A stretch of 6,469 bases of DNA from a virus (lineage: Duplodnaviria > Heunggongvirae > Uroviricota > Caudoviricetes). Position 1 is the first letter of the stretch. Each line of letters opens with the position of its first letter. Positions 1-6,469 of this stretch are shown here, in pieces. The notes beneath the pieces were generated by a model. It searched no databases. It had not been told where the DNA came from and worked only from the letters and a program-made list of their open reading frames with translations. The DNA is taken from the IMG/VR virus record IMGVR_UViG_2648501150_000029. The stretch is one strand, 5' to 3'. The translations under genes were made by a program, and so were the position numbers.

Positions 1-158
1 CCGCCGCAGGTTTTGCACTGACGCTCCTTACGCTGCCGTGGCTGGGGAATCATGGTTTGTGGCTGGCGTTAACCGTCTTTCTGGCGTTACGCGGGCTTTC
101 TCTGGCGGCTATCTGGCGGCGTCACTGGCGTAACGATACCTGGTTTGTCGCAACGTGA
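1..158 (+). CDS. dinF: 3' end of a MATE-family efflux transporter gene (DinF-like), 5'-truncated by the window edge
   Basis: Open frame from position 3 to TGA at 156-158 translating to a hydrophobic C-terminus (...ALTLLTLPWLGNHGLWLALTVFLALRGLSLAAIWRRHWRNDTWFVAT*). The position upstream of yjbJ and zur matches the lexA-dinF-yjbJ-zur order recalled for E. coli. Identity is from recall, not a search. Confidence 0.6.
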   Translation, partial: AAGFALTLLTLPWLGNHGLWLALTVFLALRGLSLAAIWRRHWRNDTWFVAT

Positions 159-273
159 CGGTTAAAAATTCTGAATAAATAATCCTAAGCAAAATTGCTG
201 ACTACACTTAATCTCACGTTCAGAAGAAAAGTGAACGTACTCTCATTCACAACCTAACGATGAGGTCTTGATT

Positions 274-483
274 ATGAATAAAGATGAAGCCGGCGGTAAC
301 TGGAAACAGTTTAAAGGTAAAGTGAAAGAGCAATGGGGCAAACTGACCGATGATGATATGACGATCATTGAAGGAAAACGTGATCAGTTAGTGGGTAAAA
401 TCCAGGAGCGCTACGGTTATCAGAAAGATCAGGCAGAAAAAGAGGTTGATAGTTGGGAAAAACGCCATGATTACCGCTGGTAA
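274..483 (+). CDS. yjbJ: CsbD-like small stress-response protein YjbJ (UPF0337 family), 69 aa
   Basis: ATG at 274 preceded by GAGG (262-265) at 8 nt spacing; stop TAA 481-483. Product MNKDEAGGNWKQFKGKVKEQWGKLTDDDMTIIEGKRDQLVGKIQERYGYQ... matches E. coli YjbJ as I recall it. The ORF-track start at 268 is a TTG two codons upstream and is less likely. Confidence 0.85.
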   Translation: MNKDEAGGNWKQFKGKVKEQWGKLTDDDMTIIEGKRDQLVGKIQERYGYQKDQAEKEVDSWEKRHDYRW

Positions 484-524
484 TTAATCCCTCCTGCCCG
501 ACATGTACAAGGATGTACACCCTT

Positions 525-1040
525 TTAGCGAGGTTTCTTTTTCACCTGAATAGAGTGGTCATGATGGCACTGTTCAGGATGACGACACGCTTCTACTTCT
601 ACACATGCTGAACATAATCCATGTGCTTCAATAACATTATGCCGCAGGGCAAAACCCATTTTTGCCGCCAGCGTATGCATGATGTCTTCCACGCCTTCAG
701 CACATTCTTCTTTCACCGCGCCGCAGCGATCGCAAATAAACATGGCTGAAGTATGGGTGGGCTGATCGAACAGATGACAGAGCACATAACTGTTGGTGGA
801 TTCCACCTTATGCACAAAACCTTGTTCAAGCAGAAACTCCAGCGCGCGATAAACCGTTGGCGGCTTGGCTTGCGGTTCAGCTTCGCGCAGCAAATCAAGC
901 AGATCATAAGCGCTGATAGCGCCATCCTGCAGACTCATCAGGCGCAACACTTCGAGACGCTGTGGGGTCAGGCGCACATTACGCTGTGCGCAGATTTTTT
1001 CAGCCTGCGCTAATAACTCCTGCGTTGTGGTCTTTTCCAT
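525..1040 (-). CDS. zur: Zinc uptake regulator Zur (Fur family), 171 aa
   Basis: Minus-strand ORF; ATG at 1040-1038 gives MEKTTTQELLAQAEKICAQRNVRLTPQRLEVLRLM..., with the Fur-family HTH region and CxxC pairs (CDRCG, CSACVEVEAC), ending ...HDHSIQVKKKPR at TAA 527-525. A GAGG lies 6 nt upstream of this ATG. The 252-aa ORF in the track (to 1283) is an in-frame upstream extension without its own RBS. Confidence 0.9.
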   Translation of the reverse strand: MEKTTTQELLAQAEKICAQRNVRLTPQRLEVLRLMSLQDGAISAYDLLDLLREAEPQAKPPTVYRALEFLLEQGFVHKVESTNSYVLCHLFDQPTHTSAMFICDRCGAVKEECAEGVEDIMHTLAAKMGFALRHNVIEAHGLCSACVEVEACRHPEQCHHDHSIQVKKKPR

Positions 1041-1110
1041 TGGGCACCTCGACAGTGGGGTTAAGAATGTCCTTACTTTACCATAGTTCTCACTTAAACG
1101 CCGAGAACAG
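1041..1110 (-). promoter_or_regulatory. zur 5' leader with ribosome-binding site; the promoter is probably within this stretch
   Basis: On the minus strand the sequence reads ...ctatggtaaagtaaggacattcttaaccccactgtcgaGGTGcccaATG, with a GAGG/GGTG Shine-Dalgarno. A possible -10-like TAAAGT is present but I cannot place it precisely. Confidence 0.3.
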
Positions 1111-1356
1111 GGTGTCATGGCTGTCACATTGCCTGATCGCATATTCGTTATGCTATAGTAGCGCCCCCAATTTACCAGATGCTTAAAAAGTCGCCATGCC
1201 AGCAGAATCACACACTGTTTATCCCGCTTACCGTTTCTCGATTGCCCCGATGCTTGATAGGATGTACCGTTTTTGAAAAACAACTAGTTATACACTTTGT
1301 GGGAGCCTATTGGGAACCTGTTATTCTTAGAAAGCATCATTTGCTCATCACTTCAA

Positions 1357-2084: not shown

Positions 2085-2500
2085 CGGATTATCAGCCATA
2101 CAGGAAAGGAACTGTGCTTGCCCCAACTGGGCCATGCAATCATCTTCATGTGATTTGTAATGATCCTGTTTATTACCCCGTTAACGATTGTTATTGTGTT
2201 TTAGTTGTTAATATTTCTAGTATCAAGGATGGTGTCCCCCACGATCCGTCTTGCGTCTTGAATTCTGGTGATCATCGCTTTATCAAGCATCCAAGTTATG
2301 TTGTTTACGCTGAAGCTATAATTTGGCGAGTGGATAACATGGTTAGAAAGCAGCGATCGGGTGAGATTTCTGTTCATGATGATATGCCAGAAGCTACATT
2401 CAATAGAATTCTGGACGGTTTTGATATCTCTGATGAAGTTACGCCAAAGAACCTTAAATTTAAAAATAAATATTGCGTATCATCTATTGATGATGAGTAA
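2081..2500 (+). CDS. Hypothetical 139-aa protein translationally coupled to the Panacea gene; candidate toxin/effector partner
   Basis: ATG 2081-2083 overlaps the upstream TGA (ATGA, 4-nt overlap) and has no independent SD, which implies coupling. Stop TAA 2498-2500. No family recognised with confidence; there is a weak by-eye resemblance to Kid/PemK/MazF-type toxins (C-x-C-V-L-V-V-N...SYVVYAEAIIWRVDNMVRKQRSGEIS), unverified. Confidence 0.45.
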   Translation: MTDYQPYRKGTVLAPTGPCNHLHVICNDPVYYPVNDCYCVLVVNISSIKDGVPHDPSCVLNSGDHRFIKHPSYVVYAEAIIWRVDNMVRKQRSGEISVHDDMPEATFNRILDGFDISDEVTPKNLKFKNKYCVSSIDDE

Positions 2501-2539
2501 ACAACAGGAATTGTTTCGGTATAACTTCAGGAGTTTTCT

Positions 2540-2713
2540 ATGGAAGATCAAAAAGCAACCAAGCCACAGGTTAAGTTCGACACAATGAAAGCATTCGCAG
2601 GTATGGGTGCTGCTGTTGAAGTTCTGATGAAGGCTGCTCCTAATGCGTTCACTCACGCTACTGTCTCTGGTAAAGAGCAGCAGGGTAAGCTTCGTCGTCG
2701 CAAAGCAGCATGA
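2540..2713 (+). CDS. Small hypothetical protein, 57 aa (MEDQKATKPQVKFDTMKAFAGMGAAVEVLMKAAPNAFTHATVSGKEQQGKLRRRKAA)
   Basis: Not in the ORF track (under 60 aa). ATG at 2540 preceded by AGGAG (2529-2533) at 6 nt spacing; stop TGA 2711-2713; followed within 20 nt by an intrinsic terminator. Basic C-terminal tail. No family recognised. Confidence 0.45.
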   Translation: MEDQKATKPQVKFDTMKAFAGMGAAVEVLMKAAPNAFTHATVSGKEQQGKLRRRKAA

Positions 2714-2732
2714 TCATAGCTGGTGCTTTTTG

Positions 2733-2758
2733 AAAACCCGCCTTTAGGCGGGTTTTTT
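2733..2758. terminator. Bidirectional rho-independent terminator
   Basis: aaaaCCCGCC-ttta-GGCGGGtttttt: a 6-bp GC stem (2737-2742 / 2747-2752) flanked by an A-run and a T-run, so it ends in a U-tract on either strand. It lies between the plus-strand small gene (stop 2713) and the convergent minus-strand excisionase-like gene (stop 2761-2763). Confidence 0.7.
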
Positions 2759-2760
2759 AT

Positions 2761-3042
2761 TTAGTGATGTTCTTTGCCCTTCTGTTTGCTTGTTCTGACC
2801 TGTTCCCACTCGATACGTCCTTCTTCTCGTCTTTTGTCTATGTATTCCGCAAGATCCTGAATATTGATGCAACGTTTTGCTTTTTGTGATGTGCCGATGC
2901 GATATGTTGGAACGGGCAACTTACAAGCGTTTGCTTTTGCTTCTGCCGTGGCTGGACTCATGCCAAAGTACTTTTGGCTAACTGCTGAGAGTTCAATGTT
3001 AGGGGTATTGAATTCAGCCATCAGTAAAAACAAGGTGTTCAT
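2761..3042 (-). CDS. Excisionase-like / PrtN-family small DNA-binding regulator, 93 aa
   Basis: Best start is ATG at 3042-3040, preceded by GGAG at 6 nt spacing; the ORF-track start at 3069 is a GTG with no SD. Product MNTLFLLMAEFNTPNIELSAVSQKYFGMSPATAEAKANACKLPVPTYRIGTSQKAKRCINIQDLAEYIDKRRE... has the MNTLFLLMA N-terminus that I associate with PrtN/excisionase-like prophage proteins. It is the last gene of the prophage operon. Confidence 0.6.
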   Translation of the reverse strand: MNTLFLLMAEFNTPNIELSAVSQKYFGMSPATAEAKANACKLPVPTYRIGTSQKAKRCINIQDLAEYIDKRREEGRIEWEQVRTSKQKGKEHH

Positions 3043-3078
3043 AATTTTCTCCATCAAAACCGGCTGCACCCGGGAAAA

Positions 3079-3651
3079 TCATAATTCTGTGCTGGTGGCA
3101 GGAATTAATTTCTGCCAGATAGCGGAAACATATTTTGCCTGATGACGGGCATCAGCCAGGGCGTTGTGCCGTTCGCCATCGAAAGGCATGTCCATTTTGG
3201 GGTCGAATCCGATGGAACGCCCAAGCGTAACGATCGTGCGTACATCGTGGTCATTCCAGTATGCCCACGGGCAGATTTGTCCTGCTCGCTCATAAGCTCC
3301 ACGTAAAATTACGTTGTCGAAGGTGGCTCCGTTACCCCAGACTTTTAAATATTTCGTATTGTCTGCGTGCCGGTTAATGAAATGATTTAGTTCTGAGAGA
3401 GCATCGCTGATCGACAAAGTATCATCAATACAGATTGCAGCTCGTGCTTCAGGGCTTTGTTTCAACCACCACAGGATGGTATCGCCGTCAGGTGTAGCTC
3501 CTTGCCCCATAGCACTTTCCAGGCTAACAACCGTATAGAATTCTTGTCCGATGTCTCCGGTTTCTGGAGTGAAGAACACCGCGCCAATGGAAACGATCGG
3601 TGCATCCTTATTTTTCCCCATCGTCTCAAGGTCGATCATTAAGTTGTTCAT
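3079..3651 (-). CDS. DEDDh-family (DnaQ-like) 3'-5' exonuclease, prophage-encoded, 190 aa
   Basis: ATG at 3651-3649 with AGAGGTG SD 5 nt upstream; it overlaps the upstream stop (TGATG). N-terminal Exo I motif MIDLETMG (D-x-E) and C-terminal H-x-A-x-x-D-A (ERHNALADARH), diagnostic of DEDDh exonucleases. By position this is the full-length counterpart of the ypdJ exonuclease fragment I recall in K-12 CPS-53. Confidence 0.75.
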   Translation of the reverse strand: MNNLMIDLETMGKNKDAPIVSIGAVFFTPETGDIGQEFYTVVSLESAMGQGATPDGDTILWWLKQSPEARAAICIDDTLSISDALSELNHFINRHADNTKYLKVWGNGATFDNVILRGAYERAGQICPWAYWNDHDVRTIVTLGRSIGFDPKMDMPFDGERHNALADARHQAKYVSAIWQKLIPATSTEL

Positions 3652-4460
3652 CACTTCACCTCTTGTGATGGTTTTGCTGCAAAATACTCGATACCTTTAT
3701 CCCAGATAGATTTTATGGTCGACCACGTGACTGGCACTTTAATTTCAATACGTCCGCTCCCGTCACAGGTATCGCAATCATCATCGCCAAAGCATTCCAG
3801 GCAGCTTATAAACGTAGTTTCTGAAAATTCACCGGATAGCGCCCCCTTAGCGCCGTTCTCGGCTGTTAGTCTCTTCGGCACCATAACCCAACCATCCGGA
3901 GTTACCGGAGAGTTGCCAGACAGTGCGTTCTGCAATCGTTCCAGCTTAACGTATTCCTGAACCCTGTTTCCGTCGCACGCCTGAAGCCATTGCACAGCCT
4001 TTTGCGCATCAGTGTGAAAGGCACAAGTGCGACCGTCATCAAATTGCATTTCGTAGAGGTCAGCAACCTGTTTAAACTGCGTTTGTGGCAACTTGTAAGC
4101 CTGGCTTGCAGGTACGGCACCATAGAGCATGGCAGCGCGGCAGGCGTTCCAGCCTTCATCAAAACCGACTATGCCATTATTTAAAGACGGACGAGCATCT
4201 GGCACCACCGGCACTGGCTTGGCTATATATAGCGGCTGAACATACCAGCCCTTTGATAACCAACTGTCAGCAATGTTTTTACTCCTGGTTATTGCCGGAA
4301 TACCTAAGCCATTGTCTGAATGCAGCCATGCCACCGGATCCTCTTCCAGCGATGCCAGAGCAATTTCATAAGCACGGCGCTCAACATTGTCTCGCACGTC
4401 CATGCTGCTGATTCGTTCTTTGATTTCTTTAATCAGTTCTTTATCGGTAAATGTGGTCAT
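3651..4460 (-). CDS. Hypothetical prophage protein, 269 aa, with C-terminal CxxC / CxxCxGxG zinc-ribbon-like motif (in the YfdT position)
   Basis: ATG at 4460-4458 with GGAGG/GGAG upstream; overlaps the upstream stop (TAATG). C-terminus ...TTFISCLECFGDDDCDTCDGSGRIEIKV contains CLEC and CDTCDGSG (CxxCxGxG, the DnaJ-type zinc-finger signature). Stop TGA 3653-3651. Function unknown. Confidence 0.6.
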   Translation of the reverse strand: MTTFTDKELIKEIKERISSMDVRDNVERRAYEIALASLEEDPVAWLHSDNGLGIPAITRSKNIADSWLSKGWYVQPLYIAKPVPVVPDARPSLNNGIVGFDEGWNACRAAMLYGAVPASQAYKLPQTQFKQVADLYEMQFDDGRTCAFHTDAQKAVQWLQACDGNRVQEYVKLERLQNALSGNSPVTPDGWVMVPKRLTAENGAKGALSGEFSETTFISCLECFGDDDCDTCDGSGRIEIKVPVTWSTIKSIWDKGIEYFAAKPSQEVK

Positions 4461-4822
4461 TATGCTCCAGCCTCCGGTGCTTTTGGCATTACTGCCCAGT
4501 GAGTGATGTTGACGTTTTCAAGGTCCCCGACCTGAAATGTCCACTGCCATTCTCCGGTTTCTTTTTGCCCCCATGTATACCAGAGAGAACGCCAGCCAAT
4601 CAGCCAGCCTTCTCCATTAGCATCAAATAACAGAACACTTTCATTCGCTGGCGGCAGTTCAGCTGACACTGGTATTACTTTGTTTTCCAGTGCTGCACAT
4701 TTAGCTTCAAGCGCATCAAATTTACGCACCAGGTATTCAGCATCCGTTTCATTCACTTTCAGATCTCGCGGTACACATTTCCCGCGAAGAAATCCTTCCA
4801 TTTCGAAAACATTCATGCGCAT
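4460..4822 (-). CDS. yfdS: YfdS-like prophage protein, 120 aa
   Basis: ATG at 4822-4820 with GGAG 8 nt upstream; overlaps the yfdR stop by 10 nt. A second in-frame ATG at 4816 forms an ATGA overlap with that stop. Assignment rests on the yfdQ-yfdR-yfdS order and the matching 120-aa length recalled for K-12; no motif recognised. Confidence 0.6.
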   Translation of the reverse strand: MRMNVFEMEGFLRGKCVPRDLKVNETDAEYLVRKFDALEAKCAALENKVIPVSAELPPANESVLLFDANGEGWLIGWRSLWYTWGQKETGEWQWTFQVGDLENVNITHWAVMPKAPEAGA

Positions 4823-5349
4823 TTGCGTAACTCCGATAATTCGTTAAAGCGTTCCATAAACATCCCGTAGGCATGGCCTGGAGCCAGTGGAATCACGTTG
4901 AACATCTCTGTTGCCGGGATACCTTCCAGTACAGGCCAGAAAGAGCCATCATCAAGCCCGAGATCGCGGCGTTCGGTTGCCAGCATGATGAGATCGGCAT
5001 ATTTCACGGGCGTACTCATAACCGGTGGTAACCCGTATTTCTCACGGATTACGGCGTCTATTTTTTCTTCCATCCGTTTATAGTCAGGAAGAAGGCGTTT
5101 CAGTGGTGCGGGAATGTCCTGGCAATACGCTTCTGTTGCATCATGCATTAACGCTTCAAAAGCAAATTCCTGCGGCACCAGCTGGCTGCAAAGAACCGCA
5201 TGTTGGGCGACGCTGTAGAAGTGCGAAAGATGACCGGCAAAGCGACAGATATTTGAAAGGGAAACCGCGATATCGTTAATATCGATGTCGTCTTTATTTA
5301 TCCTGTCATAATAAAAATGCTTCCCAGAAAAAGTTTTGATAAATGACAT
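4813..5349 (-). CDS. yfdR: HD-domain phosphohydrolase (5'-deoxynucleotidase-like), YfdR, 178 aa
   Basis: Best start is ATG 5349-5347 (MSFIKTFSGKHFYYD...) with GGAG 6 nt upstream; the ORF-track start at 5376 is a GTG without SD. HD-domain signature visible: ...H-x-x-x-H... (GHLSHFYSVAQH) and ALMHDATEAY (the H-D dyad). The 178-aa length matches K-12 YfdR as recalled. Confidence 0.8.
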   Translation of the reverse strand: MSFIKTFSGKHFYYDRINKDDIDINDIAVSLSNICRFAGHLSHFYSVAQHAVLCSQLVPQEFAFEALMHDATEAYCQDIPAPLKRLLPDYKRMEEKIDAVIREKYGLPPVMSTPVKYADLIMLATERRDLGLDDGSFWPVLEGIPATEMFNVIPLAPGHAYGMFMERFNELSELRKCA

Positions 5350-5442
5350 TTTGTTCTCCACGTATATGCGCTGCACCGCGCTGAATTCTGGTAAAAAGAA
5401 TCCCTCACCATCCGGCGATTATTGAGTAAATTACGTTTCCAT

Positions 5443-5464
5443 AAATGCCCCCGCAGGGGCATTT
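5443..5464. other. Perfect 22-bp palindrome / stable hairpin between yfdQ and yfdR
   Basis: aaatgcccc-cgca-ggggcattt: a 9-bp perfect inverted repeat with a 4-nt loop. It lies 13 nt downstream of the yfdQ stop and about 85 nt upstream of the yfdR start on the minus-strand transcript. No clean U-tract follows on either strand, so it is not a canonical intrinsic terminator. Confidence 0.5.
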
Positions 5465-5476
5465 GCAGTAATGAAA

Positions 5477-6301
5477 TCAGGCGGTGAAAGTACCAATAAA
5501 GGTTTCTACTTTGCTGTCCTTGAATTTCTCAACAAGCAGATCACGAAATTCGTTAGCCATTTCTTCCTGCACCGCCTCCAGCTGAATAATGCGCAGAACC
5601 AGTACAGGACGATCGCCAGTGATAATGCTGAGGCGTAATTTAAACGGACGTTCTTTCAGACCTTCAAACGGAACGCATTTAAATTCAAATGCCACTGGCA
5701 TAATGTCTTTGGTCTTCGCTTCGACAGACTCCATCAGGGAGCGTTTGCCGCTGAAGTCATTGTCTTCAAAATCAGCGGTCTGGTTCGCTTCAATTGTGAT
5801 TTTACGGATCGCCGCAGCCGCTTTGGTTGCCTGAATGGCGTCACCATTAGCATCAAAGCCCACAAGGTAGTCTGCCCAGTCTTCAATCCATTCTGCCAGT
5901 GACTTCTGGGAGTTACGCTCGCCATTAACAGACAACAGAGCAGAGAACGGTGCTGTCTTTTTCAGTTTGAGAGTGGCGGTGTTATCTGCGTGACCTGGTT
6001 CATCAATAGTACCCAGGTTAAGCACACTGACGGCTCGCATATTATCGGCATCGATAAAGCAGCGGGTGCCTTCATCTGCAAGATCTTTAGAATAACGGGT
6101 AAAGTCATCGATGCTGGCAGTGGAAAGTGCACCACGGAAACGGAAACGATTTAAATTAAATTTTTCCAGATCATGAATGCGGAAATTCTCAGGCAATGCC
6201 ACAGCATCGGCACCAATCTTACTGATAATTTCATTAACACCCTGAGCAGAAATAAGGGCATGGATTTGATTAATTGCGGTTGAGTCTAAGTTCTGAGACA
6301 T
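5477..6301 (-). CDS. yfdQ: DUF2303-family prophage protein YfdQ, 274 aa
   Basis: ATG at 6301-6299 with GAGG 8 nt upstream; stop TGA 5479-5477. Product [70 protein letters not shown]... matches in length and N-terminus what I recall of E. coli CPS-53 YfdQ. Identity is from recall. Confidence 0.75.
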
Positions 6302-6366
6302 AATAAGTCCTCACTATATTAAGATATTCAGTGATGAGATAAATAATCAGTTAATTAAGAACGATA

Positions 6367-6469
6367 TTAATGACCTGCTGCGCGGAGTTTTCCGTCAGGT
6401 TCACCGGCAAGAGTCAGTAATTGTCCCTGGTCTTCCTGCAGAATAGTCAGGCGACCACCGCGATTGACA
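6367..6469 (-). CDS. 3' end of the upstream prophage gene (YfdP-like by position), 5'-truncated by the window edge
   Basis: Minus-strand open frame running into the window end, terminating ...VNRGGRLTILQEDQGQLLTLAGEPDGKLRAAGH* at TAA 6369-6367. Named only by position upstream of yfdQ. Confidence 0.4.
   Translation of the reverse strand, partial: VNRGGRLTILQEDQGQLLTLAGEPDGKLRAAGH

Follow-up and report, generated by a model that had tools for sequence, protein, structure and literature searches.

What kind of element lies beside zur in a stretch of tailed-phage DNA (6,469 nt; IMG/VR record IMGVR_UViG_2648501150_000029, Caudoviricetes; hereafter the window, meaning the whole stretch), and where does it begin? 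The question arises from a preliminary description that read positions 2761-6469 as the right arm of CPS-53 (KplE1), the cryptic prophage of Escherichia coli K-12, set against the zur backbone and less decayed than the K-12 copy. Our comparisons suggest a different answer. Most probably, the window carries one end of a temperate lambdoid prophage, the attR or excisionase side, and this prophage has inserted into the 5' end of dusA in an E. coli backbone where zur and dusA are immediate neighbours; we assign this reading a probability of roughly 90%. The gene dusA encodes a tRNA-dihydrouridine synthase and is a well-known landing site for phages.

Genomes whose site is empty (e.g., E2348/69) match positions 1041-1257 at 100% identity, through the region between zur and dusA and into the start of an intact dusA, and this homology stops at 1257. 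The last 62 nt (1196-1257, plus strand; MPAESHTVYPAYRFSIAPMLD...) are, by that identity and by translation, the native dusA 5' end in displaced form, which makes up the bacterial half of attR. At 1257/1258 (...GCCCCGATGCTTGA|TAGGATGTACC...) the dusA 5' end is joined to phage DNA, which opens with the non-coding phage-side arm of attR (the attP arm, 1258-1511); this arm is identical or near-identical in the prophage of E. coli MB53, and in phage SKA5 it runs on directly into the integrase side. In a four-way alignment of attP (SKA5), attR (window), attL (E. coli MS1679) and attB (K-12), attP and attL agree on the left of the core, attP and attR on its right, which is the classical pattern expected for integration. 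The alignment delimits the attR core, or crossover region, at 1242-1257 (TTGCCCCGATGCTTGA), given here as a region rather than as single strand-exchange positions; a published attB of C. rodentium is similar to this core (PMC6328086). The insertion therefore sits in the 5' end of dusA at a conserved att motif, with direct repeats that are identifiable but imperfect. Because homology to intact dusA ends at 1257 and the att sites show this pattern, the prophage begins at about 1258 and not at 2761, and the genes at 1512-2713 are accordingly its cargo. The module had rightly been assigned to a site different from that of CPS-53, but what it abuts is a dusA remnant, with the boundary at 1257/1258. 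A chromosomal, yjbL/yjbM-like origin of the genes at 1512-2713 was ruled out, because in MB53 yjbLM and a dusA fragment precede them and the SKA5 phage genome carries them.

As expected for a dusA element, the window encodes a 93-amino-acid (aa) protein predicted to be a recombination directionality factor (RDF) of the PrtN family (rdfN, or excisionase; 2761-3042, minus strand; PF11112, E 3e-23; PHROG 1300 excisionase, E 1e-39), which is 97% identical to the protein of phage 1720a-02. DusA-specific integrases, with a 21-bp att motif, have been described in over 200 bacteria, and 64% of dusA islands have a prtN homologue (PMC4482086; Farrugia et al., 2015). In Vibrio, RdfN, a PrtN-family protein and distant homologue of the one in the window, is the RDF required to excise a dusA element (PMC8409611). 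For phage 1720a-02, integration 100 bp into dusA at a seven-base core, a phage dusA' open reading frame (ORF) and excised attP circles have been documented experimentally (PMC6328086). Both 1720a-02 (KF030445) and SKA5 (OR670062) share with the window the insertion in the dusA 5' end at the conserved core and the PrtN-family RDF at the attR end; such relatives carry the integrase at the opposite end, together with a phage-borne substitute for the dusA 5' end.

That opposite end lies outside the window and was followed in its relatives. Among complete genomes E. coli MS1679 matches best, being collinear with the whole window at 99.4%, and none in the collection is identical; M21816, 100% identical at the junction, was rejected as the identical element, its early operon differing between 3651 and about 5260. 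In MS1679, M21816 and MB53 a prophage of 38-45 kb extends from the junction, with cI/cro, replication, Q, lysis, head and tail genes. In each of the three inspected, the far end consists of DinI, a tyrosine integrase of 365 aa and a dusA reconstituted with a 5' end that the phage supplies; the substitute 5' end that restores the frame at attL was seen in MS1679. The MS1679 integrase matches that of 1720a-02 at 364 of 365 residues (99.7%). The expectation of a site other than argW and of a different integrase specificity was thereby borne out: the site is the dusA 5' end, and close relatives have a DusA-type integrase at the far end. The integrase and both att repeats had been named as what to look for; the repeats were found, in imperfect form, and the integrase was seen in the relatives, outside the window.

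SKA5, deposited as a complete phage genome, joins the two ends. Its sequence runs contiguously through DinI, the integrase, the phage dusA' (attP), PanA, the 139-aa and 57-aa ORFs, rdfN, the exonuclease, Ea22 (269 aa), EaE and the HD hydrolase, with the same cargo gene layout as the window and with a 'tRNA-dihydrouridine' fragment annotated beside int. This arrangement is what would be expected of the window arm in its excised topology. SKA5 has window positions 2500-5460 in common at 98.4%, and at about 97% the early operon is present, mostly or in part, in PhiR40_1, mEp460 and 1720a-02. Taken as a whole, the element is of a known kind, a dusA-integrating lambdoid prophage with an RdfN-type excisionase.

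Beyond these ends the relatives are mosaic. The middle of the early operon differs between them, and in M21816 a PAPS-reductase-domain gene and small ORFs stand in place of yfdS and the Ea22-like gene. The structural genes are of the contractile-tail, HK97-head type in MS1679 and MB53 and of the lambda-like siphovirus type in M21816, with att, cargo, rdfN and integrase ends identical; the combination of the same ends with different structural modules indicates that the ends are a recombination module common to mosaic phages.

The history of the arm can be read from the bacterial DNA to its left. In MB53 the order is zur, yjbLM (DUF2713), a 105-nt dusA 5' fragment and then the Panacea gene, and prophage homology begins at window position 1242, right after that annotated dusA fragment. 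From there to 6469 the window and MB53 differ by 3 mismatches in 5228 nt (99.94% identity), whereas window positions 1-1108 are only 94% identical to MB53; the unmatched stretch between them (1109-1241) is the zur-dusA intergenic region and dusA start of a different backbone allele. The yjbJ-zur backbone is likewise 94% identical to K-12, and the same prophage arm was found on backbones with and without yjbLM. A prophage part at 99.94% against a backbone at 94% indicates that the same phage entered divergent lineages, and its near-identity on a backbone diverging by 6% implies, on this comparison, a recent horizontal arrival. The backbone comprises yjbJ (CsbD family; 268-483, plus strand), annotated at the matching position in MS1679, M21816 and E2348/69, and zur (525-1040, minus strand), annotated as such in the relatives. 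As in E2348/69, this allele has zur directly beside dusA, lacks yjbL and yjbM and has a shorter DusA N-terminus. Positions 1-1257 are a B2-type E. coli backbone, E2348/69 being one of the B2-type genomes identical to it over 1041-1257. Unlike the Stx2d phage 1720a-02, the window shows no stx genes, and its backbone allele is without yjbL and yjbM.

Is the prophage then complete, or is this arm all that survives in the source genome, a fixed non-mobile island at dusA that has lost its integrase or structural genes? In favour of a remnant, E. coli often carries cryptic prophages, the visible sequence stops at yfdP, and some pseudogenes occur in the dusA prophages of MS1679 and M21816. Nevertheless, we consider such a dead remnant rather unlikely. 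All phage-side ORFs in the window (9/9) are intact, all three relatives inspected have the integrase and full structural modules, and the 99.94% identity is to an apparently intact prophage, that of MB53 (about 39.5 kb, no annotated pseudogenes), on a backbone at 94%, which argues for recent acquisition. Several points do weigh against the preferred reading. The att core is imperfect, and the crossover is placed as a region only; the window ends at 6469, so that the integrase, attL and structural genes of this copy lie beyond it and the copy could be a remnant; MS1679 carries pseudogenes, the exonuclease among them; the relatives differ in tail type and in the middle of the prophage, so that the far end of the window copy is not to be extrapolated from them with certainty; and for this copy the reading comes from sequence comparison. 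With MB53 and SKA5 as guides, a complete and possibly inducible element is plausible. In this respect the preliminary description may have been right about inducibility, but not about a less-decayed CPS-53, with which only the yfdP-yfdS cassette is common.

The proposed kinship with CPS-53 deserves closer attention, as it held that the element is a less-decayed relative of CPS-53/KplE1 with a new integrase specificity and that erosion in K-12 turned the genes for the 269-aa protein and the exonuclease into yfdT and ypdJ, respectively. What speaks for it is the DNA at the right of the window. By blastn, positions 4343-6469 match K-12 CPS-53 at 96.1% (ungapped) and phage SfV at 97.2%, and this stretch holds the 3' part of yfdP, yfdQ, yfdR, yfdS and the first 118 nt of yfdT in the same order, beside an RDF gene and an att site at a prophage end. 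Nothing matches to the left, however: 4343 is the left limit of DNA homology to both CPS-53 and SfV and marks a mosaic breakpoint. The claimed agreement in gene order consequently holds for the cassette and ends there, the exonuclease and RDF genes having no CPS-53 counterpart. Searches with these two proteins (blastp, tblastn) found no counterpart or trace in CPS-53 DNA, and by the same two methods TorI, the CPS-53 factor, showed no similarity to the window RDF. BLASTP of the relatives' integrase against IntS gave no significant match, and ypdJ resembles nothing in the window. The insertion is in dusA and not at argW with IntS.

The cassette itself does not decide the matter. Although the genes from the partial yfdP to yfdS are 96% identical to CPS-53 in DNA and 98-99% in protein, they also occur in many unrelated phages; yfdPQRS is present in 138 phage records of diverse types, and its presence does not, for that reason, define membership in CPS-53. 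CPS-53 and SfV thus resemble the window in having yfdP-yfdQ-yfdR-yfdS and the first 40 or so codons of the next gene in the same order at 96-97% DNA identity, and CPS-53 differs from it in its argW att site, IntS and TorI and in lacking the DEDDh exonuclease and the PrtN-family RDF. YfdT and its SfV equivalent orf28 are a different Ea22-type variant, of 101 aa. CPS-53 is moreover SfV-like, with gtr genes beside int, and the relatives of the window have different immunity and cargo modules.

Nor do the K-12 genes look like eroded forms of those in the window. K-12 YfdT is indeed short, as had been stated, at 101 aa, and ypdJ has 46 aa. SfV (complete genome record U82619) has the order orf32-31-30-29-28-xis-int, and its orf28 has the same 101 aa as YfdT and is about 95% identical to it; YfdT, as the full-length orthologue of orf28, is not truncated in K-12. 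Likewise, in alignment ypdJ covers residues 1-46 of SfV Xis and, judged by this alignment, is a truncated SfV-type excisionase and not an exonuclease remnant. The K-12 yfdT-ypdJ segment as a whole is 94.5-97.8% identical to the genomes of SfV, SfII, SfIV, PhiR29 and Kati; this exonuclease was never present at that position in K-12. The 269-aa protein and K-12 YfdT have only residues 1-42 of the N-terminus in common. Ea22 proteins are known to be mosaic, with common N-terminal regions and unrelated C-terminal domains (PMC10834534), and the 42-residue match fits that mosaicism. We therefore regard the Ea22-like, exonuclease and rdfN genes as what these comparisons make them, an alternative cassette and not the ancestral state of the K-12 genes. 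Alignment to CPS-53, which had been suggested as a check, yielded homology over 4343-6469 only and no support for erosion. A CPS-53 relative with decayed counterparts in K-12 is thus very improbable, and the comparisons appear to have largely refuted it already; the preferred reading remains a dusA prophage that has a cassette in common with CPS-53. As to CPS-53 itself, its torI end is 92.7% identical to phage IME10, with ypdJ at 12095-12235 of the K-12 stretch compared. The prophage looks like a left arm of SfV type in which xis was truncated and a torI/att segment of the IME10 type took its place.

Within the arm, the preliminary description was accurate about gene integrity. The minus strand from 2761 carries six intact genes (2761-6301), tightly packed, with most neighbours overlapping or abutting, followed by the 3' end of yfdP (6367-6469), which is cut by the window edge (tblastn, YfdP residues 88-120 100% identical; annotated yfdP in relatives). 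Next to rdfN, the exonuclease is full length as described (190 aa; 3079-3651, minus strand; PF16473, profile positions 1-177 of 177, E 4e-75). In this Rv2179c-like domain the catalytic residues D7 and E9 (D-x-E) and H162-x4-D167 were located by script, and the segment WGNGATFDN, read from the printed sequence, may be taken as the Exo II motif, so the protein is predicted to be a complete DEDDh 3'-5' exonuclease; NCBIfam/PADLOC added only a weak DEDDh match. In MS1679 a C>A change at window position 3501 (23501 of the MS1679 stretch) puts an internal stop in the gene. SKA5 annotates it in two pieces, and it is intact in the window, MB53 and M21816. Being broken in one relative, split in the annotation of another and intact elsewhere, the exonuclease may be dispensable in lysogens.

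The gene in the YfdT position (3651-4460, minus strand) does encode 269 aa, as had been described, and its product is an Ea22-like mosaic protein (phrog_60; annotated as Ea22 in PhiR40_1 and SKA5). Its C-terminal part (window 3651-3800) contains CLECFGDDDCDTCDGSGRIE, which resembles the DnaJ-type CxxCxGxG zinc-finger motif. This part, with its CxxCxGxG-like motif, is the protein's own and sets it apart from Ea22 proteins, to which it is likened by family. The general plan is also that of the lambda exo-xis region, where early leftward accessory genes lie between recombination/immunity functions and xis (PMC10834534). The remaining genes of the cassette, all on the minus strand, are yfdS (DUF551/EaE-like, 120 aa; 4460-4822; PF04448; 98.3% identical to K-12 YfdS), yfdR (HD-domain 5'-deoxynucleotidase, 178 aa; 4813-5349; phrog_318; 98.3% identical to K-12 YfdR) and yfdQ (DUF2303, 274 aa; 5477-6301; PF10065, E 6.5e-93; 99.3% identical to K-12 YfdQ). 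Rfam gave no RNA family in the window, and a promoter scan found 3 sites against 4.8 expected in shuffled sequence, so we claim no promoter. PDB sequence searches with the 139-aa and 269-aa proteins returned nothing meaningful.

Between attR and rdfN lies a variable cargo slot (1258-2760), which we compared with positions 1-1240 of the PhiR40_1 stretch and 1-1490 of the 1720a-02 stretch. Its occupants are a PanA/MazF-like pair in the window, a pair annotated YafM/YafO in PhiR40_1 and, unlike the window, a 182-aa hypothetical protein in 1720a-02. The window pair, on the plus strand, consists of a candidate antitoxin with a Panacea/SocA domain (PanA; 1512-2084; PF13274, E 2.2e-19; annotated as a Panacea domain protein in relatives) and a 139-aa toxin candidate with a MazF/Kid/CcdB fold (2081-2500) that overlaps panA by 4 nt. 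Further toward rdfN are a 57-aa ORF (2540-2713, plus strand; phrog_2741, E 8e-36) and a palindromic hairpin at 2732-2757 (11-bp stem with 6 GC pairs, U/A runs on both sides; from a consensus scan only), a likely bidirectional terminator between the convergent units. The PanA version occurs in 205 of 5426 complete E. coli genomes, and 666 genomes have in common at least some part of 1258-2760, many of them only the rdfN-proximal part. The 57-aa ORF and terminator stand beside rdfN in many more dusA prophages than the PanA cargo does, including those of O157:H7.

The 139-aa partner had no match in Pfam, NCBIfam or PADLOC. Its family, spread over Enterobacterales, Vibrio and Shewanella, comprises 62 clusters of proteins termed 'hypothetical', with invariant positions H21/H23/C26/D55/C58/H65. 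An AlphaFold model built from a 45-sequence alignment (a single-sequence model with pLDDT 31.7 was not used) suggests similarity to MazF/Kid at the level of the fold only (8-17% identity). In Shewanella, the gene for a homologue with 53% identity likewise overlaps a preceding Panacea gene by 4 nt, within an integrative element that is unrelated and lies beside yicC. The window pair has the marks of a PanA-PanT system, namely a Panacea domain (PF13274), a 4-nt overlap and conservation of the two-gene unit in Shewanella. Toxins of the PanT type that act as RNases are validated partners of PanA, and one has been described as an mRNA-cleaving MazF-type RNase (PMC8832971; Kurata et al., 2022). Like such systems, the window pair combines a Panacea protein with a small partner in a two-gene unit and has a prophage location; the partner, a putative toxin, differs from PanT toxins in belonging to a family without a Pfam model and in its predicted, fold-level similarity to MazF/Kid. 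It is probably a new PanA partner of a known type and a candidate toxin. A wider proposal, which we offer tentatively and rate at somewhat less than an even chance, is that the partner represents an undescribed, divergent MazF/Kid/CcdB branch within a PanA-neutralized module that moves between unrelated elements (E. coli dusA prophages and the Shewanella yicC element), occupies the swappable attR-rdfN slot and serves anti-phage defence or addiction.

From the junction, gene content and homologies observed here, a mechanism may be proposed, for which the literature supplies dusA integration and excision (1720a-02), RdfN function (the Vibrio element) and DnaA binding by YfdR (K-12). A DusA-specific tyrosine integrase, encoded at the prophage end outside the window, would recombine attP with the conserved site about 60 nt into dusA. 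The phage-supplied 5' end would keep the gene open at attL, which for this prophage would read ...GCTCCTATGCTYGA|CTGGACGG, and the native 5' end would be left at attR (1196-1257). Were the window copy active, its excision would need the PrtN-family RDF at 2761-3042. Judging by gene order, rdfN would be the last gene of a leftward early operon, yfdP-yfdQ-yfdR-yfdS-Ea22-like-exonuclease-rdfN, that ends at the 2732-2757 hairpin and is presumably expressed only after derepression. The cargo between attR and rdfN would be transcribed separately, and PanA with its MazF-fold candidate probably forms an addiction or anti-phage module, provided that the pair works as toxin and antitoxin. The widely shared yfdQRS genes would be an early accessory cassette, whose YfdR could bind DnaA and damp the initiation of host replication. 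K-12 YfdR binds DnaA and, with YfdQ and YfdS or YfdT, inhibits replication initiation when oversupplied (PMC4776307), which suggests an early role in host takeover.

These results place the true prophage boundary inside dusA and correct two statements about K-12, in that YfdT has its full length and ypdJ is what is left of an excisionase, not of an exonuclease. Beyond correct annotation their significance is small, with one mildly useful lead in the pair of PanA and a MazF-fold protein in the variable slot beside attR. They also show that a block that resembles a famous cryptic prophage of K-12 is a freely exchanged phage cassette, and the identity of an element is best read from its integrase, RDF and att site.

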